Of a stretch of 64,000 nt of DNA, positions 2,965-52,582 are shown piece after piece (position 1 is the first letter of the stretch; the number at the start of each line of letters is the position of its first letter). The translations under genes and the position numbers were made by a program. The DNA is from Alphaproteobacteria bacterium (GTDB taxonomy: Bacteria; Pseudomonadota; Alphaproteobacteria; UBA7887), in the NCBI GenBank assembly GCA_965200095.1, contig OZ241350.1, forward strand, positions 694,853-758,852. The letters are read 5' to 3'. The notes beneath the pieces are model-generated. The model made no database searches. It had not been told where the DNA came from and was given only the letters and a program-made list of their open reading frames with translations.

Positions 2965-3471
2965 TCAGCCGCCGGAGTCGGGAGCGAACACGGTCGCGCG
3001 CTCGATCTCCTCGACGTTCTCCGGGCGCGGGAACGGCGCGGGCGCGGCCTCGCCGCGGACCCGCGGGCGGCCGACCGCTTCGAAGAAGTCCTCGAGGCCG
3101 CCGGGCGTCAGCATCCAGGTCATCTTCAGCTCGTCCGCGCCCTCGTTGACGATGCGGTGCGCGTTTCCGGGGCCGAGGAAGACCATGGCGCCGGGTTCGA
3201 CCCGGTGCGCGGCGCCGTTCACCTCGACGCGCCCGGTCCCGGCGAAGAAGAACAGGACCTCCGCCTCGCGCGCATGGGCGTGTTCGCGCACATGGCCGCC
3301 CGGGGCGATGGTCTGGACGCCCGCCGAGAACCCGCGCACGCCGGGGTTGTCGCGCGGCGACAATTTGACCTCGGCGTATCCGTTCGCCGGCACAGGCTGC
3401 CAGTAGCTGCGCCCGGCGTCCGCCCCGGAGACCACGACCGCACCGCGTTCGCCGCGTTCCTTTCCGTCCAT
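2965..3471 (-). CDS. cupin domain protein
   Basis: 168-aa product from the internal ATG. Cupin motifs G(x)5HxH...E and G...H: [21 protein letters not shown] and [14 protein letters not shown]. The ORF-track start at 3549 has no good context; ATG at 3471 chosen. Confidence 0.7.
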
Positions 3472-3540
3472 CGCCTTCTCCTTCCCCCGTCGGGCGCATG
3501 GTGGCGCAAGCCGCAGGCTCCGGCAACCGCCGGCGCGCGG
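3441..3540. repeat. left copy of an about 100-bp imperfect direct repeat (cupin 5' end plus upstream); right copy at 9404-9500
   Basis: Direct comparison: gccgcgttcctttccgtccatcgccttctccttcccccgtcgggcgcatggtggcgcaagccgc versus gccgcgttcctttccgttcatcgcttcctccctgtcgggcgtatggtggcgcaagccgc, about 85% identity. Confidence 0.5.
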
Positions 3541-3654
3541 GCGCCGCAACGCGCTGCAGTCGAGGAGGCCGCGCGCGGGGCAGTGGCGCGCCGGGGCGGG
3601 TGTCGCGACGCGCTACCCTCGGGATGTACTCCGGTCCGCACGGTAATTTCGAGC

Positions 3655-3714
3655 TTGACAAAAGGCGTCGCCCTCCCCACATGCTGGCCCAGCACCAAAC
3701 GGGAGGCCTGACCC
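3655..3714 (+). promoter_or_regulatory. putative promoter/RBS region of the Ubl-E2-JAB/E1 operon
   Basis: TTGACA at 3655-3660. Strong SD GGGAGG at 3701-3706, 8 nt before ATG 3715. No convincing -10 found. Confidence 0.25.
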
Positions 3715-4017
3715 ATGAGTGATGTTCCGGGCGGCGGCAAACGCGGGGCGGGGCCGGTGGCCACCGTAGGCGATGCAACGGAGAGTAACCGCGTGCAAAT
3801 CAAGGTGAACGGAGTCTCCGTCACGGTCACAGAGACCGTCTTGATACGCGAAATGCTGGAAGCGGCAAAAAACGAAGGTGCTATTGAAGGGTTGGTCAAA
3901 GAGTACGCCATTGAAAGGGTCAAGGAGGAAGGGGAAATCGGGATTGAGGAAATCATCACTGTGAAGGAGTTTGAGGAATTCTTGGCCGTGCCGACAGAAC
4001 CGACTCCGGTCGCATAG
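3715..4017 (+). CDS. small beta-grasp (ThiS/MoaD/ubiquitin-like) protein with acidic C-terminal extension (putative Ubl)
   Basis: 100 aa. The core IKVNGVSVTVTETVLIREML resembles the ThiS-type hxVNGxxhxhxxxxTlxxLL start of a beta-grasp. First gene of an operon with E2-like and JAB-E1 genes. Does not end in Gly-Gly, so processing would be needed. Confidence 0.4.
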   Translation: MSDVPGGGKRGAGPVATVGDATESNRVQIKVNGVSVTVTETVLIREMLEAAKNEGAIEGLVKEYAIERVKEEGEIGIEEIITVKEFEEFLAVPTEPTPVA

Positions 4018-4052
4018 CTAAATCGTAACTTCACGTGACCGGAGAAGGGTAC

Positions 4053-4439
4053 ATGAGCGTCGACGGTCGGATCGCCGGCGAATTGGAGGCTTTGGGTTAT
4101 CGACCCGAGATATTCGATGCCGAGACATCGGGCGGTCAACAGCGAGTCGTGACATTCCCATATCGCATAGGCGTCGGCCGATTCAAGGGCGAGATACGGA
4201 ATGTCGGTATTTCCACACAGTGCGAGGCGGTCGGATATCCTGAAACTCCGCCACACTGGATATTCATCAGCCCTCCGATAACCGATACGAAAGACGGCGG
4301 CCACCACGGAGTAAACAGCTTTGCCGGGAGAGAATGGGTCGCGTTGAGCCGCCCTCCGGGCGCATTTTGGGACAGAGTCCGGCACAAGGGTATGAGAGCG
4401 TATCTGGAGCATCTTTCCAGGGTCTGGTCCCGGATATGA
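4053..4439 (+). CDS. E2-like (UBC-fold) conjugating-enzyme candidate
   Basis: 128 aa from ATG 4053 (SD GAGAAGGG); the ORF-track GTG at 4035 has no RBS. A conserved Cys in ISTQCEAVGYPETPPHWIF and a hydrophobic core are compatible with a prokaryotic E2. Sits between the Ubl-like gene and the JAB-E1 fusion; stop overlaps the next start (ATGA). Confidence 0.45.
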   Translation: MSVDGRIAGELEALGYRPEIFDAETSGGQQRVVTFPYRIGVGRFKGEIRNVGISTQCEAVGYPETPPHWIFISPPITDTKDGGHHGVNSFAGREWVALSRPPGAFWDRVRHKGMRAYLEHLSRVWSRI

Positions 4440-5896
4440 GGCGGGCAGACTGGCATGAGGTCGTCCTGACATCGGAGGCCAACGACGCGGCATGCGACCA
4501 TCTCCTCCGGCACCACCGGCGTGGAGAATTGCAGGAAGACCTTTGCTTCGGCTTGTGGACTCCGAGCACCGGAGCGGAGCGGGAGACAGCCATCGTCACT
4601 GCCGTTTTGCCGCCCGCCAAGGGCGAACGAAGCCTGCATGGAAATGCGAGCTTCGAATCGCGCTACCTGACAAGGGTCGTCCGGGCGGCTATCAGGCGCG
4701 GTCAGGGTTTGGCGTTCATGCACAGCCATATGAGCGCCGGATGGCAAGGCATGAGCGCGACAGACGTCGAGGCGGAGAGGGATCGCATTGCGGACACCGC
4801 GAGAGCGACCGGCAAGCCGCTGGTCGGAATGACGGTGGGAACCGACGGCCATTGGAGCGCCAGGGTCTGGAAAGACGGGACGGCCGGCAAAACGAGGATA
4901 TGGTCCAGGAAGGTCAGGGTTCTGGAAAGGAGCCGGTTGCTGATTTGGGAGCGACCGGTATCAAGGAGTGCCGATCGTCGAAAACAGCGACGAACCGTCG
5001 ACAGTTGGGGAGAGGAACGACAGCGTCGCTTGGAAGCGTTGCGGATAGGCATTGTCGGCGTCGGCAGTGTAGGCAGCGTCGTAGCGGAAGGCCTCGCGCG
5101 AACGGGCTTACGCGAACTGGTGCTGATCGACCATGACGTTATAGAGCCGCATAATCTGGACCGTATGCTGAACACCAGTGCAAGGGATATCGGACGCTTC
5201 AAGACCGACGTTGCCGAGAAGGCGGCGCGACGAGCCAGCACCGCCGACGAAATCCGGATCGTAAATCATAGAAGAAGCATAAGAGATAAAACCGCATACG
5301 CGGCTGCGCGGGACTGCGACATTCTGGTAAGTTGCGTCGATAGTCCTGTAGCGCGAGATATCCTCAACAGAATATCCTACAGAGACGCCATTCCAGTTGT
5401 GGATGGCGGTGTGGAAGTACGAAAAGATCCGCAAAGCGGAAACATGAACGCCGCACGATGGAAATCGCATGTGGCGAACCCCTATACGGAATGCCTGAGA
5501 TGCAAAGGCCAGTACATATCGAGCGACGTGATGCTGGAGCTAGATGGATCATGGCGGAACCCCGACTACATCAAGGGGTCGGCAGGATCGGAGAAGGGGG
5601 CGGAGAACGTCTTTTGTCTGAGTTTATCGGCGGCGAGCGAGATGTTGAACATGACGTTGCGGATGCCGATCGCCGAAGAGTGGTGGCCAGAGCAGGAGGG
5701 TGTAGAACGTAACTTCGTAACCGGTAGGACCAAGAAGAGAATCGGCGGCTGTCATAAGAACTGCTCGGTAAGCCAGCAGAAGTGGGCGGGCGACGATGCG
5801 GGCGCGATTCTATATCTCCGCGACAGGGACGTCCGTCCGGGATTCGCCGTTCTGAATGGGGTTGCAAACATTTTCCGGCGGTTGGTAAGGCTATGA
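4436..5896 (+). CDS. JAB/MPN (JAMM) peptidase - E1-like (ThiF/MoeB) fusion protein
   Basis: N-terminal JAMM-like motif E...HSHMSAGWQGMSATD (HxH...S..D). Central Rossmann motif IGIVGVGSVGSVVAEGLARTGLRELVLIDHDVIEPHNLDRM, typical of E1/ThiF. CxxC (CLRCKG) downstream. ATGA overlaps at both ends (4436 and 5893). Confidence 0.8.
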   Translation: MRRADWHEVVLTSEANDAACDHLLRHHRRGELQEDLCFGLWTPSTGAERETAIVTAVLPPAKGERSLHGNASFESRYLTRVVRAAIRRGQGLAFMHSHMSAGWQGMSATDVEAERDRIADTARATGKPLVGMTVGTDGHWSARVWKDGTAGKTRIWSRKVRVLERSRLLIWERPVSRSADRRKQRRTVDSWGEERQRRLEALRIGIVGVGSVGSVVAEGLARTGLRELVLIDHDVIEPHNLDRMLNTSARDIGRFKTDVAEKAARRASTADEIRIVNHRRSIRDKTAYAAARDCDILVSCVDSPVARDILNRISYRDAIPVVDGGVEVRKDPQSGNMNAARWKSHVANPYTECLRCKGQYISSDVMLELDGSWRNPDYIKGSAGSEKGAENVFCLSLSAASEMLNMTLRMPIAEEWWPEQEGVERNFVTGRTKKRIGGCHKNCSVSQQKWAGDDAGAILYLRDRDVRPGFAVLNGVANIFRRLVRL

Positions 5897-6921
5897 TGAA
5901 AACAACAGACGAAAATTGGTGCGAGTTAATGGAGAAACTACATGACGTTAGCAAGCGCGTATCCAGGAGGCCGCTCTACATTGGGGAAATGCACGGCCTG
6001 CTACACGACAATTTGATTCTTTGCGCGCTGTTTCAGAACTTACCGGAAACAGGCGCTGGCTTGGTTCACTATACGTCATGGGAAAACGCACTGAACATGT
6101 TCAATGAATATGGTAACCCGGTAATGAGAATGTATAATTATGAGCAGTCTAATGACCCGGACGAGGGTAAAATCAAACCTAAAGAATGGGAAGAAGTGGA
6201 AAGAAACGTTGATCCGATTGACAAAAGTCAGAAAGATAACGACGGCAGGAAAAATGATTTCGAATACGACAGAAATACATACGGATGTTCGTTTTCTTCC
6301 GGTGGAAAGGGAGTCGAGGATGACCTGATGTACTGGAGGATGTACGGAAATAATGGGGAAGGATGTTCTTTGAAAATAACTCCCCCGAGTGCGCGCAAAC
6401 TAACGTCGCCGAGCACGCATAAACAAGATATATTAAGGGTGTGTTACCGTGACAAGGATTCCTCCGATAGGTGCGATCAGGAAGAGATTGAGGATGGAGA
6501 GATCGCCGTACGATTGCGCAAATTTTTCGCAGTCTGCACGGATATTGTCAGTAAAACTAACGGCAAATATCCGATTGAGGCAGAATTCATTGTAAGAAGA
6601 CTTCGCGAGATCGTTCGTGGATGTTATCACTTGGTCAAACATAAGAATTACGCAGTGGAGCGCGAGTGGCGCATGATTAAGGTTGCGCCGAATTCGGAAG
6701 CAATTCGATTCGATACGACGGGAGGAGGTCTGATTAGACGGTACATTGAGGGCCCTTGTCTGAAGGAAATTCTGAGTTCTGCTTCGGTCATAACGATAGG
6801 GCCAACCGTGCCCAACGGCGGTGCCGCGCGAGCCTATATTGAGTATCTGGCCAAGACAAAGCACGGAATACAGCATGTGGAAGTAAAAAATTCCAATCAA
6901 AACTATCGACGGCAATTGTAA
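5893..6921 (+). CDS. hypothetical protein, low-GC, possible effector or target of the Ubl system (DUF2971-like motif?)
   Basis: 342 aa from ATG 5893 (MMKTTDENW...), overlapping the E1 stop by ATGA. Visibly AT-rich compared with its neighbours. Motif LVHYTSWENALNMF...NDPDEG is reminiscent of the YxYTS...NDPxE signature of DUF2971; this is a weak recollection. Confidence 0.55.
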   Translation: MMKTTDENWCELMEKLHDVSKRVSRRPLYIGEMHGLLHDNLILCALFQNLPETGAGLVHYTSWENALNMFNEYGNPVMRMYNYEQSNDPDEGKIKPKEWEEVERNVDPIDKSQKDNDGRKNDFEYDRNTYGCSFSSGGKGVEDDLMYWRMYGNNGEGCSLKITPPSARKLTSPSTHKQDILRVCYRDKDSSDRCDQEEIEDGEIAVRLRKFFAVCTDIVSKTNGKYPIEAEFIVRRLREIVRGCYHLVKHKNYAVEREWRMIKVAPNSEAIRFDTTGGGLIRRYIEGPCLKEILSSASVITIGPTVPNGGAARAYIEYLAKTKHGIQHVEVKNSNQNYRRQL

Positions 6922-7010
6922 CGGTGCCGTCCTGAAACTTTTCTTGCACGGATGCTTGATGTCTGTCCAGCGGTTGTACGTTAGGGTGGTGGGTCGGCGC
7001 AATGATCGAT

Positions 7011-7865
7011 CTAGGCTCAGGACTCATAACCAGAATATGACGGTTGCGGCGATGCAGATGGCGCTGAAGAAGGTGTGCGCGCAGCGGTCGTATCGCGTGG
7101 CGATGCGTCGCCAGTCCTTGAGCCGACCGAACATGCGCTCAACGAGGTTGCGTTGCTTGTAAAGCCCGGCATCGCAGGCGACCGGCTTCTTGCGGTGCGC
7201 CCGTCCGGGGATGCAGGGGGCGATCCCGCGTCCCTCCAGGGCTTCGCGGAAGCGGTCGCTGTCGTAGCCCTTGTCGCCAATCGGGACATTCGCGTCCGGC
7301 GGCAAGGCGTTGAACATCATCGCGGCGCCGCGATGGTCGCTGACCTGCCCTTCGGTCAGCAGCATGATCGGGGGCTTGCCGTCGCCGTCGCAGACCGCGT
7401 GCAGTTTCGAGTTGAGGCCGCCCCGGGTGCGTCCGATACAGCGCGAAAGAGCCCCTTTTTTAGCAGACTGGCTGCGGTGCGGTGGGCCTTCAGATGGGTG
7501 GCGTCGATTATCACCGTCCCCGTTGCCCGGCCCTCCGCCGCCAGGGCCGCGAAGATGTGGTTGAACACGCCGGCCTCGCTCCACCGCACGAAGCGGTTGT
7601 AGAGGGTCTTGTGGGGACCGTATTCGGAGGGCGCGTGACGCCAGATGAGGCCGTATCGGATCACATGGATGATGCCGGAGATGACGCGCCGGTCATCGAC
7701 CCGGGGCACGCCGCGGACCTTGTTGGGCAGCAGCGGCCGGATGCGATCAAATTGGGTCTCGGAGAGCCAGAACTGGTGGTCGGACATGGTGCACCCCCTG
7801 TATCTGGTGGCAGCACACCACACATCCTAACCCAACGCAACCCCCTTTATGGGTCCTGAGCCTAG
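7011..7865 (-). mobile_element. IS5-family insertion sequence, copy 1 (IS427/IS1031-like subgroup)
   Basis: Terminal inverted repeats ggctcaggactcataa / ttatgggtcctgagcc, flanked by CTAG on both sides (4-bp TSD typical of IS5). Two overlapping transposase ORFs. Near-identical copies at 18075-18923 and 59834-60682. Confidence 0.85.
7024..7787 (-). CDS. IS5-family transposase OrfAB (programmed -1 frameshift at A6G within LLKKG)
   Basis: OrfA MSDHQFWLSETQFDRIRPLLP...HLKAHRTAASLLKKG and OrfB ...GDKGYDSDRFREALEGRGI...RNLVERMFGRLKDWRRIATRYDR (DDE) in overlapping frames. Confidence 0.8.
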
Positions 7866-7964
7866 GTACCAAACGAGTTGATCGCAACATTTGCAGGACG
7901 GCGCCCCGTCCCCTATGCTCCGCCATCGTCCGCTTCCCGGCGCGGGCTGCGAACGGAGACCGGC

Positions 7965-8708
7965 ATGGACCCGGACCTGGCAGGCTTCATCGGCCTTGCG
8001 GCATTGATGGTGACGCTCGTGGCGTGGCTGCGCGTCGACATGGGCGGACGCATGGACCGCCTCGACGAGCGCATGGGCCGCATCGAGACCACGCAGGCCG
8101 AGCACGGCGCGGCGCTGTCCGCGCACGGCGCAATGCTCTCCCAACAGGGCGAACGCCTGACGCGCATCGAGGCGACCCAGGCCGAACAGGGCGAACGCCT
8201 GACGCGCATTGAGGCGACCCAGGCCGAACAGGGCGAACGCCTGACGCGCATCGAGGCGACCCAGGCCGAACAGGGCGAACGCCTGACGCGCGTCGAGACG
8301 GCGCAAGCCGAACAGGGCGAGCGCCTGACGCGTATTGAGGCGACGCAAGCCGAACAGGGCGAACGCCTGACGCGCATCGAGACGACCCAGGCCGAACAGG
8401 GCGAACGCCTGACGCGCGTCGAGACGACCCAGGCCGAACAGGGCGAACGCCTGACGCGCGTTGAGATGGCGCAAGCCGAACAGGGCGAGCGCCTGATACG
8501 CATCGAGGCCGCGCAGAACGAGTTGCGCGAGCGTGTGGACGGAATGGACGCCGAACTGCGCGCCGAAATGCACGCCGCGCGCGCCGATCTGGCGCGCATC
8601 AACGAACGCATGGCGCGCACCGAAGGCACTGTGGCCGGGGCCCTCGGACGCCCCTTCCCCGAACTCATGACGCGCCCGGCCGACGCCGCAGCCGCAGCCG
8701 CCGAATAG
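7965..8708 (+). CDS. membrane-anchored coiled-coil protein with nine tandem 14-aa repeats (QAEQGERLTRIEAT)
   Basis: ATG 7965 (MDPDLAGFIGLAALMVTLVAWL = an N-terminal TM helix) followed by 9 x 42-bp in-frame repeats, then a coiled-coil tail. Function unknown. Confidence 0.6.
   Translation: MDPDLAGFIGLAALMVTLVAWLRVDMGGRMDRLDERMGRIETTQAEHGAALSAHGAMLSQQGERLTRIEATQAEQGERLTRIEATQAEQGERLTRIEATQAEQGERLTRVETAQAEQGERLTRIEATQAEQGERLTRIETTQAEQGERLTRVETTQAEQGERLTRVEMAQAEQGERLIRIEAAQNELRERVDGMDAELRAEMHAARADLARINERMARTEGTVAGALGRPFPELMTRPADAAAAAAE
8148..8526. repeat. 9 x 42-bp near-perfect tandem repeats, in frame within CDS 7965-8708
   Basis: Repeated unit ggcgaacgcctgacgcgcatcgaggcgacccaggccgaacag with few substitutions. 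Confidence 0.8.
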
Positions 8709-8817
8709 TCCCGCACCGCACGGAGGTCTCGTCGTCCGCAACATTGCGGGACGATGCGCCGTCCCCTATGCTCCGCCATCGTCCGCCCCGTCGCGCGGGC
8801 TACGAACGGAGGCCGAC

Positions 8818-9196
8818 ATGGACCCGGACCTGGCAGGCTTCATCGGCCTTGCGGCGTTGATGGTGACGCTCGTGGCGTGGCTGCGCATCGACATGAACGG
8901 GCGCATGGACCGTCTCGAGACCGCACAGGGCGAGCGCCTGACGCGCATCGAGGCGACGCTGTCCGAACACGGCGCAACGCTGTCGGCGCACGGCGAACGC
9001 CTGATACGCATCGAGGCCACACAGCACGAGTTGCGCGAGCGTATGGACGGACTGGACGCCGAACTGCACGCCGCGCGGGCCGACCTGTCGCGCATCAACG
9101 AACGCATGGCGCACCGAAGGCACAGTGGCCGGGGCCCTCGGACGCCCCTTCCCGGAACTCATGACGCGCCCCGCGGACGCCGCAGCCGCCGAATAG
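8818..9196 (+). pseudogene. second tandem copy of the coiled-coil gene, contracted to 1-2 repeats and with a 3' frameshift
   Basis: Upstream region and N-terminus (MDPDLAGFIGLAALMVTLVAWL) duplicated from 7890-8000. Only 1-2 repeat units. A 1-bp difference (atggcgcgcaccgaagg versus atggcgcaccgaagg) shifts the frame, so the conserved C-terminus (TEGTVAGALGRPFPELMTRPADAAAAE) falls out of frame. Confidence 0.45.
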
Positions 9197-9403
9197 TCCC
9201 GCGCGGGGTCTGCGCGATACCTGTCCGCGACCTGCGCCATCACGCCCTCGCCTTCGAAACAGCGCCGCGTGTCCGTGGGCCGGAGTCGTCGTCAGCCCTT
9301 GCAGGTAATAGAGCGAGAGCGGCGGGTTGATGAGGAAGCCGAGCACCCCGGCGCCGACCAGATTCCAGAACGCCGCCGCCAGGAAGAATATCAGCGGCAG
9401 GTG

Positions 9404-9500
9404 ATAGCGCCGCGTCCGCCGCGTTCCTTTCCGTTCATCGCTTCCTCCCTGTCGGGCGTATGGTGGCGCAAGCCGCGCGCCGCGGCAACGGGCCGGCGAC
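9404..9500. repeat. right copy of the about 100-bp imperfect direct repeat; contains a degenerate cupin start (MNGKERGGRGA... then stop)
   Basis: See 3441-3540. The minus strand encodes only 15 aa of a cupin-like N-terminus before a stop. Confidence 0.5.
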
Positions 9501-9896
9501 CCGCGTCACGACGATGAGCGTTACCCGGGGGAACGACCGCAAGGGCCCCGCAGCGTTGCGGCAAGGCGGGGAACTGCGCCGGACGCCCGCGGATGCGACG
9601 GCGCGCCGCCTCGAAACGGTTCTTGCGGGTCGAAACGGGAATCGCCGGCGACGGCCGGCGGTCCCTGTCGGCGGGTCCCGGCATCGGACCCCCGGATATG
9701 TCGCGTCGGCGCTCCCGGAGACGATCGCAGCCGGCCCGCCGCGCCTCGGCAAGGGCCGACCCTGTCCGGACACACGCGAGACACGGCGCGTCCGGGCCCT
9801 TATCCGTGGCCGGAAGCCCGCTTGCCGCCGGGACGGGCTGCGGGGAGCGGCGAACCGGCACGTTGATCGCCAGCTGCGCTCATGGTAGCGTAGGGC

Positions 9897-9962
9897 TACC
9901 TCTTCATCGGGGCCTCTTCATCGGGGCCTCTTCATCGGGGCCTCTTCATCGGGGCCTCTTCA
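9897..9962. repeat. 14-bp tandem repeat (cctcttcatcgggg) x about 4.6 in the leader/promoter of the autotransporter gene
   Basis: Seen directly: ctacctcttcatcgggg cctcttcatcgggg cctcttcatcgggg cctcttcatcgggg cctcttca. Ends 24 nt before ATG 9986; SD GAGGAAG at 9971-9977. Confidence 0.85.
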
Positions 9963-9985: not shown

Positions 9986-12900
9986 ATGCCGAGAATCGAC
10001 CTTGTCATCCGTCGCATCCGCCGCGGCGGTTTCGCGGCCGCGCTCCTTGCGTCGCTTCTTCCCGCGTCCGACGGGGCGCATGCGCAAGCGGCGGCCTGCA
10101 CGCCGACGCAAACGGTCAGCGCGCAGGCGGACGCGAACGGCGTCTACACCACCACGCTGACCTGCGCGGACACTTCCGCGGCGGCGGGGGCGGCGGACTA
10201 CCGGCAGCTCCACTACAACCATGGCGCCGCATACGGGACGAACCCGGCCGACCGCGACGCGAACCTCGCGAACAACAACGCTTACAATAACCTGGCCCTC
10301 ACGATCGGGCGCGGCGTGATATTCACCGCCGACGGCTACAACGACAACAGGCTCACGGTCACGGACGGCGCCATCCTCCTGTGGAACGCCGGCGCCAAGA
10401 CCGTAACCATGGAGGACGGCGCCGTCATCAAGCTCGAACGGACGCCGGCCTACTGGACAGCGACGGATCCGGACCGCCCGATGTCCGCGACGCCCCAATA
10501 CGACCCGGCATGGTACCCGACCTGGCGGCACGCCCTGGACAACCTCGTCGGCATCGGCGCCTATTCGTATACCGGCGCGGACGGCGACGCGGACATCACG
10601 ATCGGGCACCACGGCGTCATCGACATCGACATCGACATCGGCGGCACCTACGGGAAGAACGGGTATTACGACGCCAGCGCCGGCCGCGCCATCGATGTGC
10701 AGGTAAAGGACACCGGCGGCGCCTCCGCCGCGCGCGCCGACCTCGACGTTCTCATCGAGATGGGGGCCACCGGCGTCATCCGGCATGTCGAGGGCTCCGA
10801 CGGCCTGAGCGGCATCTACGTGGAGAACTTCAGCGAGGAGGGAGACATCAGGATCGACCTGGCCGAAGGCTCGCTGATCGACGTCTCCGAAGGGGGCGGC
10901 TACGGCGTCACGGCGCTGCTTCGCAGGGACGCCGCCAACAACAACGGCCAGCGAACCGGCGACCTCATCGTCAACGCAGCCGGAACGATCAGGGCGGCCG
11001 CGAGGAGCCGGGTGCAAAGCTTCCAGCACGGCTACGGCATTTTCGCCGACCAGGGCGGACACACCGGCCGGGTTCGCGTCGTCTCGTCGGGAACCATCGA
11101 GACCGTGCAGGGCCCCGCCATCGACGCGAGGGCATGGAGAAGCACCCAGACGCACCGCGACGACCCCGACACCGCGGAGATCGAAGGGCACATCGTCGAC
11201 GTAACGGCCGGGACGATGGAGACCCGGGGGACCACCGCCGTCTACGCCTCCACCGGCAGCGCCAACTCCCACATGACGGTCCGGGTGGCGGAGGGCGCCA
11301 CCGTCCGCGCCCAGGCGCTCACGGACGAGGACTATGCGAACGGCGCCCTCACGCAGGAAACCCTGGGGGCCGACGGAAGCCCATACATCATTTCCGGCAT
11401 CTACCGCTATCACGGATGGCGGAGAGTGGACGTGGAGCAGACGACCGACAGCGGCGCGACCGTGACGGTGAAGCGGCTGGAGCCGATCATTACCGGCATC
11501 GCGGTCCGCGATTTCTCGTCGAGTCCCAACGCCGACGGCTTGAGGGACCAGGTGCTCGTCGACGGGACTGTCGAAACGGTCGGCGGCAAGGCCGGCGTGG
11601 ACCCCGCCATCTGGCTGGAGAGCGGCGGGCTGGTTACCGTCGGGGCGAACGGGCGCGTCAGCGCGGACTCCGGCATTGCGATTTCGGGCGGGTGCTTCAC
11701 CGATTACCGCAAGGTCGATTTCGTCAACATAGATTCGCCGGTCGATTGCGACACGGCAGCGCCCCGCACCCTCGAGGTGAGGGTGGCCGGGACGGTCGAA
11801 GGCGACATCCGCGTGCTCGACGACGGCGTCCTGAATTTCAGGTCGATGGAAGGCGGGACGGTCGCGGGCACGGTGCACGACCCCGCCGGCCCGCTGACGG
11901 TGGCGGGCAGCGTCGGGCGTCTGCTTTACACCGACGGCGGCGCGGTGACGGTGACAGGCACGGGGCGCCTCACCGGCGTCGACGGCGTGGCGTTGCGCAG
12001 CGAGTCGGGCGATCTGAGCCTGACCGTTGCCGACAAGGGCGTGGTTACGGGCGATGTCCAGGCGCGCGGCGGCGGCCGGCTGATGCTGGATGTGAGGGAA
12101 GGCGGGACGATTTCGGGAACGGCGCACGACCCCGTTGGCCCGTTGACGGTGGCCGGCAGCATTGGACGCCTTCTCTACACGTCCGGCGGCGCGGTGACGG
12201 TGACGGGCACGGGGCGTCTCACCGGCGTCGACGGCGTGGCGTTGCGCAGCGAGTCGGGCGATCTGAGCCTGACCGTTGCCGGCATGGGCGTGGTTGCGGG
12301 CGATGTCCAGGCGCGCGGCGGCGGCAAACTGACGCTGGATGTGAGGGAAGGCGGGACGATTTCGGGAACGGCGCACGACCCCGTTGGCCCGTTGACGGTG
12401 GCCGGCAGCATCGGGCGTCTGCTTTACACCGACGGCGGCGCGGTGACGGTGACGGGCGCGGGGCGTCTCACCGGCGTCGACGGCGTGGCGTTGCGCAGCG
12501 AGTCGGGCGATCTGAGCCTGACGGTGGCCGGCATGGGCATGGTTACGGGCGATGTCCAGGCGCGCGGGGGCGGCCGGCTGACCCTGGACCTGAAGGAAGG
12601 CGGGACGATTTCGGGGACGGTGCACGACCCCGCCGGCCCGCTGACGGTGGCCGGGAGCATCGGGCGGGTGCTCTACAGTTCGGGCGGCGCGGTGACGGTG
12701 ACGGGCGCGGGGCGCCTCACCGGCGTCGATGGCGTGGCGTTGCGCAGCGAGTCGGGCGATTTGAGCCTGACCGTTGCCGACAAGGGCATGGTGACCGGCG
12801 ATGTCCGGGCGCGCGGGGGCGGCCGGTTGACCCTGGACCTGAAGGAAGGCGGGACGATTTCGGGGACGGTGCATGACCCCGTCGGCCCGCTGACGGTGGC

Positions 12901-14737
12901 GGGCAGCATTGGACGCCTCCTCTATGCCGACGGCGCCGCGGTAACGGTGACGGACACGGGGCGCCTCACCGGCGTGGATGGCGTGGCGCTGCGCAGCGAC
13001 GCCGGCGACATCGACCTGACGGTGGCCGGCCTGGCGACGGGCGACATCGACGCGCGCGGCGACGGCGACCTGACGGTCGCGGTGTCGGGGACGGTCGACG
13101 GCGACATTTTCGGGCGCGGCGCGGGCGAACACACAGTGACGGTGGCGCGCGGCGGCGCGGTAACCGGGACCGTGGACCTCGGCGCGAGCACTGTGACGAC
13201 GGACGGCGCCGTGGGGCGGGTTCGTTTCGAGCGCGGCGGCGCGGCGACGGTAGGTTCGACGGGCCGGATTTCCGGTATCGACGGCGTCGCGGTCGACAGC
13301 CGTTCGGGCGACCTGACGGTGACGGTGGCCGGCCTGGCGATGGGCGACATCGACGGGCGCGGCGGCGGCGACCTGACGGTCATGGTGTCGGGTAGGGTCG
13401 ACGGCGATGTCTTCGGACGCGAAGCCGGCGAACACGAGGTGACGGTGGCGCGCGGCGGCGCGATAACCGGGACCGTCGACCTTGCCGGCGACGGCGCTGT
13501 GACGGTGGAGGGCATGGCGGGGAGGATTGACTTCGAGCGCGACGGCGCCGTGACGGTGGGGCCGGAGGGCCGCATCTCCGGCAGAGACGGCGTGTCGATA
13601 GAGAGCCGTTCGGGCGCCCCGGCGGTGACCATCGTGGCGTCGGCGGGCGAGTCGCTGCGCGATGCGGTGGGGCGCGTCGGCGGGGCGATCGTCGCAGCCG
13701 AGGGCGAGCCTTCGGTGATGCTCGGCCGCGAGGGCGAGACGGGGTCGATAACGCTCGGCGGGCTCGGAACGGCGCGCTCGATCCCCGAAGGCGCCTACGA
13801 TGTGGGCGTGGTGCGCACGGCGTCGGGCGCGTTGCGCGCGGTGAGCCGGCTGGCGGCGCGCACCCGCGTCTACGAGGCTCTGCCGTCGCTGCTTCTGGGG
13901 ATGGAGCGCACGGCGTCGCACGCCGACCGTGCGGCGGCGCCCCGCGCGTCGGACGGGACGTGGGCGCGCGTCGATGCGTCGCGGGGGTCGTGGGAGGCGG
14001 CGAGTTCGGCCAATGCGGGGACCGGCTACGACCGTCGCGGTTTCTCGTTCCAGGCCGGCCTGGACGCGGTCCTGAGCGAGGAGACGCGCGCGGGTCTGTC
14101 GGTCCACTGGCGCCGGGCGACGGCGGAGGTGTCGCGCAACGGCGGCGAGATCGAGGCCCGGGGCGCGGGCGTGGGTCTGTCGGCAACATGGTCTCCGGGG
14201 CCGTTCTTCGTGGACGGCCAGGCGGCGGCGACGCTCTACGATGCGGACCTGAAATCGACGCTGCGCGGGAGGCTGAAGGACGATGTCGGGGCGCAGGGCC
14301 TTTCGGCGGCGCTGGAGGCGGGGCGCACGGTTCCCGTGGCCGAGGGCGTTACGGTGACGCCGCGGGCGCGGGTGGCCTGGTCGTCGCTGTCGCTTTCGGG
14401 CTTCGTCGACGACGCGGCGGGGGCGCGGGTGTCTCTGGACCGGGGCCGGAGTTTGACCGGTCGCGCCGGGGCGCTGGCGGAGCGCGTCCTGGGCGAAGGG
14501 GGCCGCATCTTCGGCTCGGTGGATGTGGAGCGCGAGTTCTCGGCGGAGACGCGGATGTCGGTCGCGGGGACATCGCTGGAGACGGCGGGCGAGGAGACGC
14601 GCTATATGGTCGGGGTCGGCGGCGAGCATGGCTGGGAGGATGGCCGCTTCGCGCTGCGCGGCGCGCTGGACTATGCGATGTCCGGCGGCGATGCGCGCGA
14701 CTACGGTGCCCGCGCCAGCCTCTCGATGCGCTTCTGA
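9986..14737 (+). CDS. autotransporter (type Va) adhesin-like protein with repetitive passenger domain
   Basis: ATG 9986 followed by signal peptide MPRIDLVIRRIRRGGFAAALLASLLPASDGAHAQAA. Gly/Thr/Val-rich beta-helix-like passenger. C-terminal roughly 270-aa autotransporter beta-barrel ending ...YGARASLSMRF (terminal aromatic). Confidence 0.85.
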   Translation: MPRIDLVIRRIRRGGFAAALLASLLPASDGAHAQAAACTPTQTVSAQADANGVYTTTLTCADTSAAAGAADYRQLHYNHGAAYGTNPADRDANLANNNAYNNLALTIGRGVIFTADGYNDNRLTVTDGAILLWNAGAKTVTMEDGAVIKLERTPAYWTATDPDRPMSATPQYDPAWYPTWRHALDNLVGIGAYSYTGADGDADITIGHHGVIDIDIDIGGTYGKNGYYDASAGRAIDVQVKDTGGASAARADLDVLIEMGATGVIRHVEGSDGLSGIYVENFSEEGDIRIDLAEGSLIDVSEGGGYGVTALLRRDAANNNGQRTGDLIVNAAGTIRAAARSRVQSFQHGYGIFADQGGHTGRVRVVSSGTIETVQGPAIDARAWRSTQTHRDDPDTAEIEGHIVDVTAGTMETRGTTAVYASTGSANSHMTVRVAEGATVRAQALTDEDYANGALTQETLGADGSPYIISGIYRYHGWRRVDVEQTTDSGATVTVKRLEPIITGIAVRDFSSSPNADGLRDQVLVDGTVETVGGKAGVDPAIWLESGGLVTVGANGRVSADSGIAISGGCFTDYRKVDFVNIDSPVDCDTAAPRTLEVRVAGTVEGDIRVLDDGVLNFRSMEGGTVAGTVHDPAGPLTVAGSVGRLLYTDGGAVTVTGTGRLTGVDGVALRSESGDLSLTVADKGVVTGDVQARGGGRLMLDVREGGTISGTAHDPVGPLTVAGSIGRLLYTSGGAVTVTGTGRLTGVDGVALRSESGDLSLTVAGMGVVAGDVQARGGGKLTLDVREGGTISGTAHDPVGPLTVAGSIGRLLYTDGGAVTVTGAGRLTGVDGVALRSESGDLSLTVAGMGMVTGDVQARGGGRLTLDLKEGGTISGTVHDPAGPLTVAGSIGRVLYSSGGAVTVTGAGRLTGVDGVALRSESGDLSLTVADKGMVTGDVRARGGGRLTLDLKEGGTISGTVHDPVGPLTVAGSIGRLLYADGAAVTVTDTGRLTGVDGVALRSDAGDIDLTVAGLATGDIDARGDGDLTVAVSGTVDGDIFGRGAGEHTVTVARGGAVTGTVDLGASTVTTDGAVGRVRFERGGAATVGSTGRISGIDGVAVDSRSGDLTVTVAGLAMGDIDGRGGGDLTVMVSGRVDGDVFGREAGEHEVTVARGGAITGTVDLAGDGAVTVEGMAGRIDFERDGAVTVGPEGRISGRDGVSIESRSGAPAVTIVASAGESLRDAVGRVGGAIVAAEGEPSVMLGREGETGSITLGGLGTARSIPEGAYDVGVVRTASGALRAVSRLAARTRVYEALPSLLLGMERTASHADRAAAPRASDGTWARVDASRGSWEAASSANAGTGYDRRGFSFQAGLDAVLSEETRAGLSVHWRRATAEVSRNGGEIEARGAGVGLSATWSPGPFFVDGQAAATLYDADLKSTLRGRLKDDVGAQGLSAALEAGRTVPVAEGVTVTPRARVAWSSLSLSGFVDDAAGARVSLDRGRSLTGRAGALAERVLGEGGRIFGSVDVEREFSAETRMSVAGTSLETAGEETRYMVGVGGEHGWEDGRFALRGALDYAMSGGDARDYGARASLSMRF
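11852..13030. repeat. 249-bp (83-aa) tandem repeats, about 4.7 copies, inside the autotransporter passenger domain
   Basis: Unit GGTISGTAHDPVGPLTVAGSIGRLLYTDGGAVTVTGTGRLTGVDGVALRSESGDLSLTVAGMGVVTGDVQARGGGRLTLDVRE starts at 11852, 12101, 12350, 12599 and 12848. Antisense ORFs of 237 nt recur every 249 nt. Confidence 0.8.
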
Positions 14738-14937: not shown

Positions 14938-16188
14938 TTATAGCCGCGTCCGTCCAGGCCAGTACGCCGAGACATCGAATTCAAACAACTCTTTTTTTGA
15001 ATTACGCTTCCGAATGGCCCTGCATTTAATATTCTCAAATTCCAAACGTTCCAGCATCGCAGCGTATATCTGCTCTACGGGCAGTAACACGTCATAAAAT
15101 TTGGAATTCCCGACAATATAATGCAATTCGGCGCTGTCGTTCAACATTGGAATCAGTGAGTTGAAGTGCTTCCACATATCCTCGATATATTTCGCTACAT
15201 AGTTCGCCAATATCTTTCCACTCTTGTTATCGCTGCGCGCTATTCCGTCCAACGCGGTATCGATCATCGGATGTCCGAACGCCCCCGGCGGACGTTCCCA
15301 GTCCCCCAACCTGCTGGTTGCAATGCCCCATGTGCCGCCTATCGCCGACCAGTCCAGCTCGCCGGCATCCCGGCTATTTTGTAGAAAACCAAGCCAGTAC
15401 ATATACGGTCGCAGCTCACGGATATACGACATCCGGTTCGCATATGGCGGAGACGTAATCACCAGATCGAAAAACCCTTCCACGCACTTCGGTAACATTC
15501 TCGCGTCCCCGAATACGACGTGGCTCATTCCCTCCGGGCTTTCTTCCGCACCTCCCAATACGACTCGCACGTCTTCGCGAAATACGTCGCCCATATCGAT
15601 CTCGAACGGGATATACAATTGATCATCATACTTAAAGGACATCGACTGGTGGTTGAAGGCCGCGTTAGACAGTGCGATCAGAGTTCTGCAGAATGCCACC
15701 AGCAGCAGATCGCGTTCCGGAGATTTCGGTTCGCTCTCCACCTCAATGCCGGCCTTGAGTTTGCAAAGAAATTCCAAAGCATCCGGACGCCACCACCTCT
15801 CGATATTGCGAATAGGAGGGGCCGCCGCGGCGCCAACCGTTCCCCGCTTTACAACTCCGATGATCCGGTCGCATGCGCTGCGAACTGCGTCTATCGCGGC
15901 TCCAGTGTATCGTGTCGTCTTCGCCCGACCGAACCAAATCAGGAACGGATTGATATCCGTTGTCACCCCTTCGTGTCCATGATACGCAGCACTTAACGCT
16001 GTTGTCGCTGTTCCGCAGAATGGGTCCAAAACTCTTAACGGCTGCTCATGCCGCTCCGTCAATTCCTCGACCATCTTGACGGAGTATGCCGGTGTGAGCC
16101 GCAGCCAGCCATGACGCCCGATGTTCGTGTTGAACTTATGCGTGTAGTCGGCTCTCTGTCGCAGCTTTTCGCCATGAACCACGCTCAT
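14938..16188 (-). CDS. DNA methyltransferase (N6-adenine/N4-cytosine amino-MTase, SPPY motif)
   Basis: 416 aa. Motif I-like VLDPFCGTATTA near the N-terminus and motif IV LVITSPPYANR in the middle. Low GC. ATGA overlap with the downstream gene. Confidence 0.8.
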   Translation of the reverse strand: MSVVHGEKLRQRADYTHKFNTNIGRHGWLRLTPAYSVKMVEELTERHEQPLRVLDPFCGTATTALSAAYHGHEGVTTDINPFLIWFGRAKTTRYTGAAIDAVRSACDRIIGVVKRGTVGAAAAPPIRNIERWWRPDALEFLCKLKAGIEVESEPKSPERDLLLVAFCRTLIALSNAAFNHQSMSFKYDDQLYIPFEIDMGDVFREDVRVVLGGAEESPEGMSHVVFGDARMLPKCVEGFFDLVITSPPYANRMSYIRELRPYMYWLGFLQNSRDAGELDWSAIGGTWGIATSRLGDWERPPGAFGHPMIDTALDGIARSDNKSGKILANYVAKYIEDMWKHFNSLIPMLNDSAELHYIVGNSKFYDVLLPVEQIYAAMLERLEFENIKCRAIRKRNSKKELFEFDVSAYWPGRTRL

Positions 16189-16874
16189 GTCGCCTCCGGA
16201 GACAAAAGAACGTTCAGAACTGTATCTATTTCTTGACGGAGAATGGATCTGTTCCGCTCAAAAAACGCCGCCAAATCATATCCAACGACGTCGCGCATGA
16301 AATCATAGGTCGATATCGAGGGATCTCCCGCACCCATGACCCCGGTGATAACCGACCATTTTTCAGAGCGATATCGCATCAATATATCCCCGTCGATTTG
16401 CCCCGACAAAATCACGGCGCAAGGGAGGTAACCCTTCGTATAAGCTGTGGCTGCGTTTGCGATATCCGCATTCTGCCGCTTGGAATCTTTGCTCTTGTAT
16501 CCCTGTCGCACTTCAAAAACCGCGCCCGTCAACCCCTCTAGAACATCATCGTCAACGTCCAGCATCTTCGCGGAGTTACGCATCCATCGATGAAACGAAT
16601 TTCGCTTGTCGTTATCACCGATTCTTTCGAGAGGAACTCGGCCGTCCATATACAATGTCCGCTTCCGGCCGCTCGTCGATGTTACCCGATACGACCAAAT
16701 CACGTCTTTCTCAGACAGCCCCAGAAAATCTTTTATGGCGCGGCGAAAGACTTTTTCGCAGCCAATCCCGATCTGGCGATAAATGCTTGTCATTCCGCCC
16801 GCTGCCCTGTGGGCGGCGTACATCATGGGATTGTCCAGGCCGAACCAGCTGTAGAAAACGTCTTTTCGATACAT
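16185..16874 (-). CDS. putative type II restriction endonuclease (partner of the MTase)
   Basis: 229-aa low-GC ORF immediately upstream of the MTase, translationally coupled (ATGA), with a good SD (AGGAG). No recognisable family. Call rests on operon context and a possible PD-(D/E)xK-like DVDDDVLEGLTGAVFEVRQGYK. Confidence 0.45.
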   Translation of the reverse strand: MYRKDVFYSWFGLDNPMMYAAHRAAGGMTSIYRQIGIGCEKVFRRAIKDFLGLSEKDVIWSYRVTSTSGRKRTLYMDGRVPLERIGDNDKRNSFHRWMRNSAKMLDVDDDVLEGLTGAVFEVRQGYKSKDSKRQNADIANAATAYTKGYLPCAVILSGQIDGDILMRYRSEKWSVITGVMGAGDPSISTYDFMRDVVGYDLAAFFERNRSILRQEIDTVLNVLLSPEAT

Positions 16875-16889: not shown

Positions 16890-18072
16890 TAGTGTCCCGC
16901 TTCTGAAGTTCGCATGATAATGTGTGTGATTATGTGGCTTGTGTGGAGGTCATGGGATGGGGCGTCGTGCGGGTCGGCCGGTTGCGTCCGTGGTGTTGAG
17001 CGACGAAGAGCGGTCGTATCTTGAGCGCCGGGTTCGCGGTCGTCGCGTTGGGCGTGCGCTTGCGGAGCGTTGCCGCATCGTCCTGCGTTGCGCCGATGGT
17101 TTGACGAACAAGGCGGTTGCTGCGGAAGTCGGCGTGCATGAACACACTGTCGGCAAGTGGCGTCGTCGTTTCCTGAAGGATCGCGTTGAGGGGTTGTCGG
17201 ACGCACCGCGTTCGGGGCGTCCGCGCAGCATAGAAGACGCCCGGGTGGCCGAGGTTGTCCGGCGGACGCTCGACGCGTCGCCGGTCGACGCCACCCATTG
17301 GTCGATCCGCTCGATGGCCCGGGAAGTGGGGCTTTCCCCGGCGTCGGTGCAACGGATCTGGAAGGCGTTCGGTCTGCAACCGCACCGGTCGGAGACGTTC
17401 AAGCTTTCCGGCGACCCGCAGTTCGTGGACAAGGCGCCGACATTGTCGGCCTCTATCTGTCGCCGCCGGATCGCGCGCCGGTGCTCTGCGTCGACGAAAA
17501 GAGCCGGATACAGGCGCTCGACCGCACCCGGCCCGTCCTGCCCATGACGCCGGGCATGGCCGAGAGGCGAACCCACGACTATCGGCGCAACGGGACGACC
17601 TCGCTGTTCGCCGCCCTCGACATCGCCACCGGTTTCGTTATCGGCAAGTGCTACAGGCGTTATCGGTCCCGGGAGTTCCTCTCCTTCCTCAAGGAAATCG
17701 ACGCCCATGTTCCCGATGACCTCGATATTCACATCGTCATGGACAACTACGCCACCCACAAGACCGCAGCGGTGAAATCCTGGATGGCGCGGCGTCCGCG
17801 CTATCGTGTTCACTTCACGCCGACCTCGGCGTCCTGGATCAATCGGGTGGAACGCCGGTTCGCCGAACTGACGCGCAAGCAGCTGCAAAGGGGCGCGCAT
17901 AACTCGACGAAACAGCTTGAAGCGGATATCCGCTCTTTTATCGACAAGCACAACCGGAACCCCAAACCCTTCAGGTGGACGAAATCCGCCGACGACATCC
18001 TCGCATCCGTCAAGCGCTTCTGCCATCGCGTCGAGCATACCCTATGCCACGAACTTTAGAGGCAGGACACTA
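16890..18072 (+). mobile_element. IS630-family insertion sequence, copy A
   Basis: 22-bp terminal IRs tagtgtcccgcttctgaagttcgc / rc tagtgtcctgcctctaaagttcgt, flanked by TA. Transposase in two overlapping frames. Identical copy inverted at 60684-61867. Confidence 0.85.
16939..18059 (+). CDS. IS630-family transposase (two overlapping frames, frameshift or pseudogene)
   Basis: N-terminal HTH (VGVHEHTVGKWRRRF) and a C-terminal DDE domain (HIVMDNYATHK ... SWINRVERRF). Confidence 0.8.
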
Positions 18073-18074
18073 GC

Positions 18075-18923
18075 CCAGGACTCATAACCGGAATATGACG
18101 GTTGCGGCGATGCAGATGGCGCTGAAGAAGGTGTGCGCGCAGCGGTCGTATCGCGTGGCAATGCGTCGCCAGTCCTTGAGCCGACCGAACATGCGCTCGA
18201 CGAGGTTGCGTTGCCTGTAGAGCCCGGCGTCGCAGGCGACCGGCTTCTTGCGGTGCGCCCGCCCGGGGATGCAGGGGGCGATTCCCCGTCCCTCCAGGGC
18301 TTCGCGGAAGCGGTCGCTGTCGTAGCCCTTGTCGCCAATCGGGACATCGGCGTCCGGCGGCAAGGCGTTGAACATCATCGCGGCTCCGCGATGGTCGCTG
18401 ACCTGCCCTTCGGTCAGCAGCATGATCGGGGGCTTGCCGTCGCCGTCGCAGACCGCGTGCAGTTTCGAGTTGAGGCCGCCCCGGGTGCGTCCGATACAGC
18501 GCGAAAGAGCCCCTTTTTTAGCAGACTGGCTGCGGTGCGGTGCGCCTTCAGATGGGTGGCGTCGATTATCGCTGTCCCCGTCGCCCGGCCCTCCGCCGCC
18601 AGGGCCGCGAAGATGCGGTTGAAGACGCCGGCCTCGCTCCACCGCACGAAGCGGTTGTAGAGGGTCTTGTGGGGACCGTATTCGGAGGGCGCGTGACGCC
18701 GGATGAGGCCGTATCGGATCACGTGGATGATGCCGGAGATGACGCGCCGGTCATCGACCCGGGGCACGCCGCGGACCTTGTTGGGCAGCAGCGGCCGGAT
18801 GCGGTCGAATTGAGCCTCGGAGAGCCAGACTTGGTGGTCGGACATGGTGCACCCCCTGTATCTGGTGGCAGCACACCACATACCCCAACCCAACGCAACC
18901 CCCTTTATGGGTACTGAGCCTGG
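18075..18923 (-). mobile_element. IS5-family IS, copy 2 (abuts IS630 copy A)
   Basis: Same IRs and ORFs as copy 1; proteins about 99% identical to copy 3. Confidence 0.85.
18082..18845 (-). CDS. IS5-family transposase OrfAB (frameshifted)
   Basis: MSDHQVWLSEAQFDRIRPLLPNKVRG... / ...DKGYDSDRFREALEGRGIAPCIPGR... Confidence 0.8.
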
Positions 18924-19316
18924 TCGCCGAGCGTTGAAGATACGCCGCGAAATCGCGGAACGTTTTCGTCTTCTTGATATCGAGAAGACGGAAAGACTCG
19001 CTGAAGGAATTACGCCCTTCCAGCGTGCGGGTCACGAGTGCATGACCGAAGCGGCGTCCGACGCGCATCTTGAGAGTTGGATAGAAATTCCCGCCGCTCG
19101 GTCGCGGACGCGATCGCAACCGTTCAAGCTCGGCGTCGTATGCGATATGGAATTGCCGTTCGGTGAGATCTCCAACATCGTAAATGCGGCGCAAGATAAC
19201 CAGTGTGCTTACCTTGAAGCGCAGGGCGATTCAATGAAGCGATGGGCCATAGGGGGTGACAGGATTTTCGGGACGATATACAAGGTGTTGTGGGTTTGGT
19301 TTCGAGGGTGTCCAGG

Positions 19317-20481: not shown

Positions 20482-20489
20482 ATTGCCCT

Positions 20490-21361: not shown

Positions 21362-21690
21362 CGCCGCCCCCATTTGCGGAAATGCCGCAGCACGTCCTCG
21401 AGCCGCGCGCCATAGTCCCACTTTTCGTGAAAGGTCTCGAAGATATGGACGAGCTGCGCTTCTTTCAAGCCGTAGAGGCGGGCGGCGACGGCGTCGAGTT
21501 CGTGGATCATGTCGTCTTTCTCGTCCGCCGCGAGGGGCCCGCAATCGACCCCGACGGCCCCGGCCCAGGCGGCGAAACGGTCGTCCGGGCAAGCGAGACG
21601 CCCGGCGAGCTCGACGACGCGCCGCCATGGGGCGTCGTCGCGCCCGGGACGGGGGATCGGGAAGCAGTTGAATATGAAGTATGAGACCTC
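21358..21690 (-). pseudogene. C-terminal fragment resembling the end of Eco57I/PglX-type methyltransferases (..LDAVAARLYGLKEAQLVHIFETF..)
   Basis: Only the last 60-110 aa look protein-like; upstream it runs into the hairpin-repeat cluster. The LYGLTxEEI-type terminal motif is known from Type IIG/BREX MTases (from memory). Confidence 0.3.
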
Positions 21691-52374: not shown

Positions 52375-52582
52375 TTTGCCCTCTACATTCGCAACATGAT
52401 GCGGGCGCAGTGCCACTCCGGCATGCGCCGTGATGGTAGAGAGGCTTTTGCGTGCCGCATTTCGGATGTACGCATGCCAATCTGGGGCTGTCTCGGTTGA
52501 TATCAGGCATTGGAGCACATCCTCGCATCTTGGTCAACCCTCTTTCGCGCGTGCGCCCGGAATTCAGGGCTGCGACCATGCG

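Follow-up and report, generated by a model that had tools for sequence, protein, structure and literature searches.

Duplicated cupin gene starts around a Bub-type operon in an alphaproteobacterial genome: a candidate case of natural insertion-duplication

Background

In the genome of an alphaproteobacterium of the lineage UBA7887 (GenBank assembly GCA_965200095.1, contig OZ241350.1), the start of a gene for a cupin protein occurs twice within a stretch of 64 kb (positions 694,853 to 758,852 of the contig, called the window throughout and numbered from its first letter), and the two copies enclose about 5.9 kb of DNA that includes a putative operon of the ubiquitination-like Bub/Bil type. The intact cupin gene (2965..3471, minus strand) encodes 168 amino acids (Pfam Cupin_2, 3e-14) and is followed downstream, on the same strand, by uvrB (816-2951) and pcd (376-675). 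In the other direction, beyond its start codon, lie the first repeat copy, a GC-rich spacer, the operon, an insertion sequence (IS) of the IS5 family, two coiled-coil genes, a scrap of a norB-like gene, the second repeat copy and, past a further stretch of upstream sequence, a long autotransporter gene. An earlier note on this DNA had read everything between the two copies as a likely insertion that brought or regenerated a surrogate 5' end for the cupin gene, in the manner typical of site-specific genomic islands though without an integrase. Here we examine the locus together with 17 related loci (L-numbers below) and weigh this reading against others.

Results and discussion

The start of the cupin gene is present twice

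Alignment of the window copies places two direct repeats, in the same orientation, at 3440..3527 (C1) and 9407..9489 (C2), both on the minus strand. The duplication that had been described at 3441-3540 and 9404-9500 with about 85% identity is real, and its bounds are now tighter: the repeat is about 85-88 nt long rather than 100, and the shared block, at about 83-85% identity, has 69 matching and 14 mismatched positions and an indel of 5 nt, and includes identical runs of 17 nt and 18 nt. C1 holds cupin codons 1-11 together with about 55 nt upstream of the start codon, and heads the complete cupin gene. C2, as the note had seen, encodes only a short peptide, MNGKERGGRGAITCR, before a stop; it is a dead cupin stub, joined out of frame to an internal norB/COX1-like fragment.

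The simplest account of such a pair is chance similarity, or membership in a dispersed family of repeats or regulatory motifs, and the latter had been named in the note as an outcome that would speak against an insertion. This genome is GC-rich and does carry other repeat families, but shuffled sequence is expected to contain neither of two sub-patterns of 25-26 nt taken from the repeat, and each of them turns up in the window just twice, even when up to 3 mismatches are tolerated. A profile made from seven versions of the cupin 5' unit added no copy in the window; across the 17 related loci it picked up a single copy at each cupin locus and another in L013, and nothing else; in the relatives compared, the unit always stands at a cupin 5' end or beside the ubiquitin-like (Ubl) cassette. 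The repeat also spans 11 codons of a gene, and no Rfam family was matched by the unit or the window. With two copies in 64 kb and none in shuffles, we rejected chance and a dispersed repeat; a family of the repetitive extragenic palindromic (REP) or miniature inverted-repeat transposable element (MITE) type is effectively excluded, and we regard this whole class of explanation as extremely improbable. A recent in-place tandem duplication was rejected as well: C1 and C2 differ at 15-17% of positions and are about as distant from each other as from the orthologues of other lineages.

Searches further afield were negative. The core of the unit gave a single chance match, inside an unrelated gene, and no true match in JGI metagenome contigs, and nothing in plasmid and viral collections matched either the cassette or the unit. 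Scans for tRNAs, promoters and terminators gave nothing informative, and for that reason we do not call the unit a promoter.

A portable cassette within a composite segment

The content reported earlier for the DNA between the repeats (a Ubl operon, an IS5 copy and two coiled-coil genes) was correct, although the norB/COX1-like fragment at 9250-9406 had been overlooked. Next to C1 lies a GC-rich spacer (3528..3650; 77% GC) with weak similarity to the intergenic region upstream of the cupin gene in L009 (z 2.8, p about 0.02), a locus without the cassette; the likeness would suit a spacer that came from the ordinary chromosomal DNA of a relative. The low-GC cassette that follows (3651..6935, plus strand; 54.5% GC against about 70% for the genome) encodes a 100-aa Ubl-sized protein (3715-4017), a 128-aa E2-sized protein (4053-4439), a 486-aa fusion of putative deubiquitinase (DUB) and E1 parts (4436-5896) and a DUF2971 protein (5893-6921; Pfam 1e-7). 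At its C-terminal end the fusion has a ThiF/E1 domain (Pfam 2e-33), and among PDB entries Citrobacter BubCD (structure 9ea4, E 1.2e-20) is the best match; a JAMM-like HSHx8Sx2D motif was spotted, by eye only, in the N-terminal part, and the cassette matches the E1-E2 and BilD models of PADLOC. The Ubl and E2 proteins gave no profile or PDB match and are assigned by size and position only; on sequence grounds, the cargo is judged to be a Bub/Bil-type ubiquitination-like operon by the E1 fusion alone. Exact-sequence look-ups of the cupin (with two alternative starts) and of the Ubl protein returned no record. The DUF2971 gene as a fixed fourth member of a Bub/Bil-type operon is possibly worth attention.

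Homologues of the E1 protein number 283 at E <1e-10, the best of them 86% identical, and the cassette itself recurs in five related loci, L013-L017, at 76-87% nucleotide identity and in five different contexts. Among the copies, homology starts within the promoter region of the Ubl gene or immediately ahead of the start codon and ends about 10 nt past the DUF2971 stop, and from these limits the portable unit measures about 3.3 kb, not the whole 5.9 kb. In L015 it lies at most some 5 kb from two integrase genes, and in L016 within a defence island; neither of these two copies has the cupin unit. In L013 it adjoins an AAA_21 operon and has a Cas13a gene a few kilobases off, and in L014 it adjoins the same methyltransferase and amidohydrolase genes that are found in L006 (97% nucleotide identity). 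The Cas13a gene of L013 (16584-19880; Pfam Cas13a_endoribonuclease) lies about 4 kb past the cassette, with the AAA_21 operon on the cassette's other side, and the locus looks like a multi-system defence island. A gene for ankyrin repeats in the window (40531-41406), built of 102-nt tandem repeats, has a homologous repeat gene that adjoins the cassette of L015 (13044-14159).

The remaining features between the repeats appear to be of separate origin. The IS5-family element (copy 1; 7015..7861, minus strand; Pfam DDE_Tnp_1_2 and DUF4096), whose ends were set by alignment to a copy 2 at 18073, has CTAG on both sides (7011-7014 and 7862-7865), and this target duplication marks it as a later, simple insertion into DNA that was once continuous. 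A composite transposon bounded by IS5 was considered and rejected: only one IS lies between the repeats, it is internal and has its CTAG duplication intact, and the borders of the segment are cupin units. Two tandem coiled-coil genes with 42-nt repeats come next (7878..9249, plus strand; one gene at 7878-8708, the other from 8818 to about 9200 and frameshifted). They are made of 14-aa repeats, RIEATQAEQGERLT, and the second is shortened as well as frameshifted; no homologue was seen in any related locus compared, only weak XhlA/DUF16 similarity. The last element before C2 is an internal norB/COX1-like fragment of 157 nt (9250..9406, minus strand; RYHLPLIFFLAAAFWNLVGAGVLGFLINPPLSLYYLQGLTTTPAHGHAALF), which corresponds to positions 304-352 of the Pfam COX1 model with an E value of 3.6e-8, just under the family cut-off, as is expected for a fragment; the window holds no further COX1 pieces. 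The segment is a composite: IS5 came in later, as did the coiled-coil genes and the norB scrap, and the latter two are specific to the window genome. What lies between the repeats is not one element, and its portable part is the 3.3-kb cassette.

Cupin loci in related genomes

The cupin protein of the window is 95% identical to the protein P0001, and the cupin-uvrB synteny is conserved in L006-L009. The loci L006-L008 are the nearest (cupin 95% identical in amino acids, 90-93% in nucleotides across cupin-uvrB), and their homology to the window ends at position 3532, a few nucleotides beyond the outer edge of C1. Upstream of the cupin gene they have genes for 142 and 119 amino acids, and L006, the longest of the three, has further upstream a methyltransferase, an amidohydrolase, FtsJ and NDK, none of which occurs in the window; a tblastx comparison of the relatives' upstream genes with the window gave GC-driven noise only. 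In L009, a contig of 1.86 Mb, the cupin is 84% identical and the order pcd-uvrB-cupin is kept, with a methylmalonyl-CoA mutase gene ending about 90 nt upstream of the cupin gene. The cupin relatives that a scan of genome contigs yielded were all distant (61-71% over full-length matches), and none had neighbouring genes in common with the window. The upstream neighbours of the cupin gene differ in every lineage compared.

The note had suggested that a genome without the island should have the cupin gene next to the autotransporter gene. No such empty site was found: the closest relatives, L006-L008 and L009, have other upstream genes, and L011 and L012, the autotransporter relatives, share with the window the coding region only, from 10037 onward, and so gave no empty site. 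What does bear on the insertion is L017, a metagenome contig of 3.5 kb. It carries, in order, E2, E1 and DUF2971 genes, 29 nt, antisense cupin codons from about 57 to 22, a 70-nt deletion, the upstream part of the unit and a flank of 445 nt. This flank (L017 3076-3551) is 85.9% identical over 502 aligned positions to the sequence between C2 and the autotransporter gene (window 9490..9934, leading to the gene at 9986-14737, plus strand). Because flank, unit and cupin are contiguous in L017, C2 and its flank represent the native upstream context of the cupin gene; truncated C2 adjoins the original flank, while the complete gene is headed by C1. L017, where the C2-side flank continues straight into the unit and then into cupin codons about 22-57, bears out the earlier claim that the DNA between the repeats is an insertion. 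Both lineages, that of the window and that of L017, have flank, unit, cupin stub and cassette end in this order. The L017 stub is the longer of the two: it reaches about codon 57, so that the duplicated homology there comes to about 255 nt in all.

The cassette and the unit are also found together elsewhere. In L013, some 40 nt separate the Ubl promoter from a 65-nt form of the unit, which has the orientation of C1 and no cupin after it; that it might continue into a cupin remnant was checked by tblastn and rejected. In L006-L008, a stretch of 35 nt adjoining the unit on its upstream side is the same, base for base, as the Ubl-promoter edge of the L014 cassette, a scar which shows that a cassette once stood at the spot.

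Several further features of these relatives were recorded in passing. L006 (3791-4766) and L014 (1-4130) have alternative cassettes with the same borders within one population (97% nucleotide identity in the flanking methyltransferase), the alternatives being the 119-aa and 142-aa genes in the one and a 227-aa gene plus the Bub-type cassette in the other. L014 diverges between GT and TGCC into 51 nt of unassignable sequence, after which the contig ends. In L009, positions 18401-18650 are a patchwork of a 109-nt copy of that locus's own cupin 3' end (98%) and a 116-nt copy of L009 14933-15048 (92%), adjoining a long tandem repeat of GTCCACGGGGCCC; short local fragments seem from this patchwork to be copied into intergenic DNA in the clade.

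The units form a reciprocal mosaic

The units were aligned on the cupin strand and split at a core of 17 nt, GCGGCTTGCGCCACCAT, that C1, C2 and L006-L008 share without a difference. In segment A, the 12 nt before the core, C2 agrees with L006 at 12 of 12 positions and C1 with L013 at 11 of 12, whereas the crosswise comparisons (C1 with L006, C2 with L013) give 8 of 12 each. In segment B, C2 and L013 have in common an A after CCAT, the loss of the same 6 nt ahead of the start codon and GAAC instead of GGAC; the states of L006-L009 are found in C1. Writing a and b for the native types of the two segments and a' and b' for the cassette-linked types, L006-L008 are (a,b) and head an intact cupin, L013 is (a',b') and stands beside the Ubl promoter without a cupin, C2 is (a,b') and lies beside the native flank with the stub, and C1 is (a',b) and lies beside the spacer and the Ubl operon at the head of the intact gene. 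All four combinations of types exist, each in what looks like a fitting context, and their relation would be that of two attachment sites, attB and attP, to the products attL and attR. The L013 unit has the composition predicted for attP and adjoins the Ubl promoter, but it is chromosomal.

An insertion-duplication and its alternatives

From the sequence comparisons, our preference, held with a confidence only slightly better than even, is that the segment is the footprint of a single-crossover (Campbell-type) insertion-duplication at the 5' end of the cupin gene. The donor would have been a relative with the Ubl-E2-DUB/E1-DUF2971 cassette directly upstream of its cupin gene, an arrangement seen in L013 and L014 and, as a scar, in L006-L008. 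A contiguous piece of the donor chromosome, comprising cassette, spacer, unit and the first 57 or so cupin codons, would have circularised, and the junction in L017 between the cassette end and codon 57 is the joint that such a circularisation would be expected to produce. A single reciprocal crossover between the circle and the cupin 5' region of the resident lineage, mapping in the window genome to the 17-nt core GCGGCTTGCGCCACCAT, would then have integrated the circle, and the homologous stretch would thereby have been duplicated: C2, on the autotransporter side, would end where the import ended and be dead, and C1 would keep the cupin intact. At later stages the stub would have been trimmed to 11 codons and joined to the norB scrap, the two coiled-coil genes would have arrived, and IS5 would have inserted. 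The repeats, the stub, the conserved flank, the mosaic pattern, the portability of the cassette and the IS5 target duplication can be seen directly in the sequences. We infer the circular intermediate, and likewise host homologous recombination, rather than an integrase, as the agent; an integrase is not required, and none was found among the window's open reading frames that were scanned. The notion of a surrogate 5' end fits this course in part. An intact copy and a dead stub do exist, but the import into the working gene appears to amount to only about 12 nt of the unit plus the spacer beyond it, and the imported 5' coding end appears to reside in the dead stub.

Several observations weigh against an insertion-duplication of this kind. 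Neither an empty site nor a circular junction was seen among the relatives' loci compared. The informative sites are few, about 3 upstream and 3-4 downstream of the core, and the chance of their segregating so cleanly is about 0.06-0.1; moreover, the four-type pattern proves one recombination in the history of the units, not necessarily this insertion. The L017 unit is itself mixed: its segment A is of type a, its core has one base like that of L013, and the first site of its segment B is of type b. As a short metagenome contig, L017 could also be misassembled. In L006-L008 the native-type (a) segment adjoins the 35-nt Ubl-promoter scar, which shows that segment-A type and cassette do not strictly go together. 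Should the architecture be older than the split of the window and L017 lineages, whose flanks are about 14% diverged, the 15-17% divergence of the repeats could reflect an old in-place duplication. Finally, homologous recombination works inefficiently when the crossover must fall in 17 identical nucleotides of a stretch that is 85% identical.

In a site-specific alternative, the segment is a decayed island of the type of cis-mobilizable elements (CIMEs), with a tyrosine or serine integrase that has been lost or is unlinked, an attP x attB reaction in the cupin upstream region, and the repeats as attL and attR. Integrase-less elements that retain att sites are described: CIMEs are decayed integrative and conjugative or integrative and mobilizable elements that keep attL and attR without integration and transfer genes (PMC5704250). 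The identical 17-nt core that holds the apparent crossover would suit an att site, four comparisons (C1 against L006-L008, C2, L013 and L014) all lose homology at one (G)TTGCC edge, and L015 has two integrase genes no more than about 5 kb from its cassette. That edge, however, may merely be the limit of a conserved upstream region, the cassettes of L015 and L016 lack the unit, which therefore does not belong to the cassette's usual mobile vehicle, a duplicated homology of about 255 nt in L017 is long for an att site, and no inverted-repeat core structure is evident by eye. The earlier note's finding that no integrase is present was upheld: none occurs among the open reading frames (ORFs) between the repeats, all of which were searched with Pfam and PADLOC and yielded only the IS5 DDE transposase, and none among about 45 ORFs scanned in the window, a scan that was not exhaustive; no tRNA gene and no CIME-type helper element was found in the 64 kb either. 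With neither integrase nor tRNA found, and with an L017 homology that extends to about codon 57 and resembles homologous insertion-duplication, the site-specific island proposed earlier is not favoured; we consider a decayed island of this type unlikely.

More doubtful still, though more far-reaching, is the idea that the unit of about 85 nt serves an unlinked, trans-acting recombinase as a dedicated docking site, at which integrase-less defence cassettes, the Bub-type operon among them, are inserted, excised and swapped beside uvrB-cupin across this alphaproteobacterial clade. It would explain both the shared (G)TTGCC edge in four lineages and the crossover in one 17-nt core and, if true, would amount to an integron-like platform for whole defence operons.

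A different view dispenses with a single insertion altogether. The stub would be debris in a hotspot of defence genes, remodelled again and again as cassettes are swapped through double crossovers in the core genes on either side and as illegitimate joins pick up short pieces of filler DNA, and the repeat would be incidental. The norB scrap lies out of frame with the stub, as such a join might leave it; L009 has its patchwork of 109-nt and 116-nt local copies, the L006-L008/L014 population has alternative cassettes with the same borders and the 35-nt scar, the neighbours upstream of the cupin gene vary by lineage, and at 14.7-23.8 kb there is a second accessory block, which holds restriction-modification genes and IS elements. 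Debris of this sort does not predict the reciprocal mosaic or the match between unit type and context, nor the fact that the window and L017 share flank, unit, stub and cassette end in the same order and orientation. We rate it as a serious minority possibility, with a probability of about a quarter, and retain the single-crossover insertion-duplication as the preferred reading.

Other features of the window

To the right of the autotransporter gene, the second accessory block (14.7-23.8 kb) comprises a type II restriction-modification pair, IS630, IS5, an IS4-like element and remnants of a type IIG enzyme. The restriction-modification pair (14938-16874; PADLOC REase_II 2e-71) is of low GC content. 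The type IIG enzyme is present in two separated pieces (21358-21876 and about 22400-23460, profile positions 57-404 and 1266-1372), which indicates an internal deletion or disruption, and alongside these pieces are a gene for an IrrE/M78-XRE protein (19892-21628) and the IS4-like element (19290-20481). A pair of IS630 and IS5 occurs twice, in inverted orientation, at 16890-18920 and about 59830-61869, and its IS630 copies are 95% identical to one in L013; the two pairs bracket some 41 kb of mostly housekeeping genes, could drive inversion of that DNA and in this way may explain the loss of synteny with relatives.

An 815-aa ORF at 50071-52518, among core genes, has a NACHT domain (Pfam 5e-12) and may encode a defence protein of the bacterial NLR (nucleotide-binding, leucine-rich repeat) type. 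Short MITE/REP-like repeats around the hairpin TTCCCGCGAAAGCGGGAATC form clusters at 21.8-22.2, 41.6-42.7 and 61.9-62.5 kb, about 20 kb apart. A palindromic element of about 100 nt in the gap between pcd and uvrB (702-809) recurs in both orientations, at 77-88%, in the otherwise unrelated L013 16382-16494.

Comparison with known systems

Integration of a suicide plasmid is the classic case of single-crossover insertion-duplication by circular DNA that carries a 5' gene fragment. The present locus resembles it in that direct repeats flank the insert and that one copy of the gene is complete and the other, truncated at its 3' end, lies beside the original upstream flank. The pattern in the repeats is that predicted for hybrids of incoming and resident alleles, as read from about 3 informative sites on one side of the core and 3-4 on the other. 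It differs in being natural, the 'vector' being a chunk of a relative's chromosome with a defence-type cassette, in the shortness and divergence of the homology (85-255 nt, about 85% identical), and in a circular form that is itself part of the interpretation. The SXT/R391 elements insert into the 5' end of prfC and supply a replacement upstream/5' part, and elements of the SXT type encode an integrase beside the att site and carry transfer genes. Here, too, an insertion at the 5' end of a conserved gene has left that gene intact, with imperfect repeats and an identical core of about 17 nt; unlike in SXT/R391, no integrase or transfer genes were found and the duplicated homology is longer.

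With CIMEs the segment has in common that it is an accessory segment flanked by repeats without a recombinase of its own, the repeats here being only putative att sites, but no cognate helper was found in the 64-kb window and the target is neither a tRNA gene nor the 3' end of a gene. The cargo resembles the Bub/Bil operons (9ea4; 10.1101/2023.09.04.556158) in its small Ubl-sized and E2-sized genes and in an E1-domain fusion nearest to BubCD. It departs from them in the conserved fourth gene, DUF2971, and in Ubl and E2 genes that are recognised by size and position, and a role against phages is only putative.

Conclusions

The kind of event favoured here is already known, and the locus would be a new, natural and well-resolved instance of it; no site-specific mechanism was demonstrated. 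For annotation, its value is that the stub at C2 is a pseudogene fragment, that the true portable unit is 3651-6935, and that the region upstream of uvrB-cupin is a variable hotspot. On the preferred reading, the locus would be a clean natural case of a defence-type operon moving between related chromosomes with no recombinase found inside it: the operon would carry a piece of its old neighbour, the cupin 5' region, as homology for insertion, while the host gene survives and a diagnostic stub remains. If this is general, short and diverged duplicates of the starts of core genes could mark integrase-less islands and the direction in which they were transferred.

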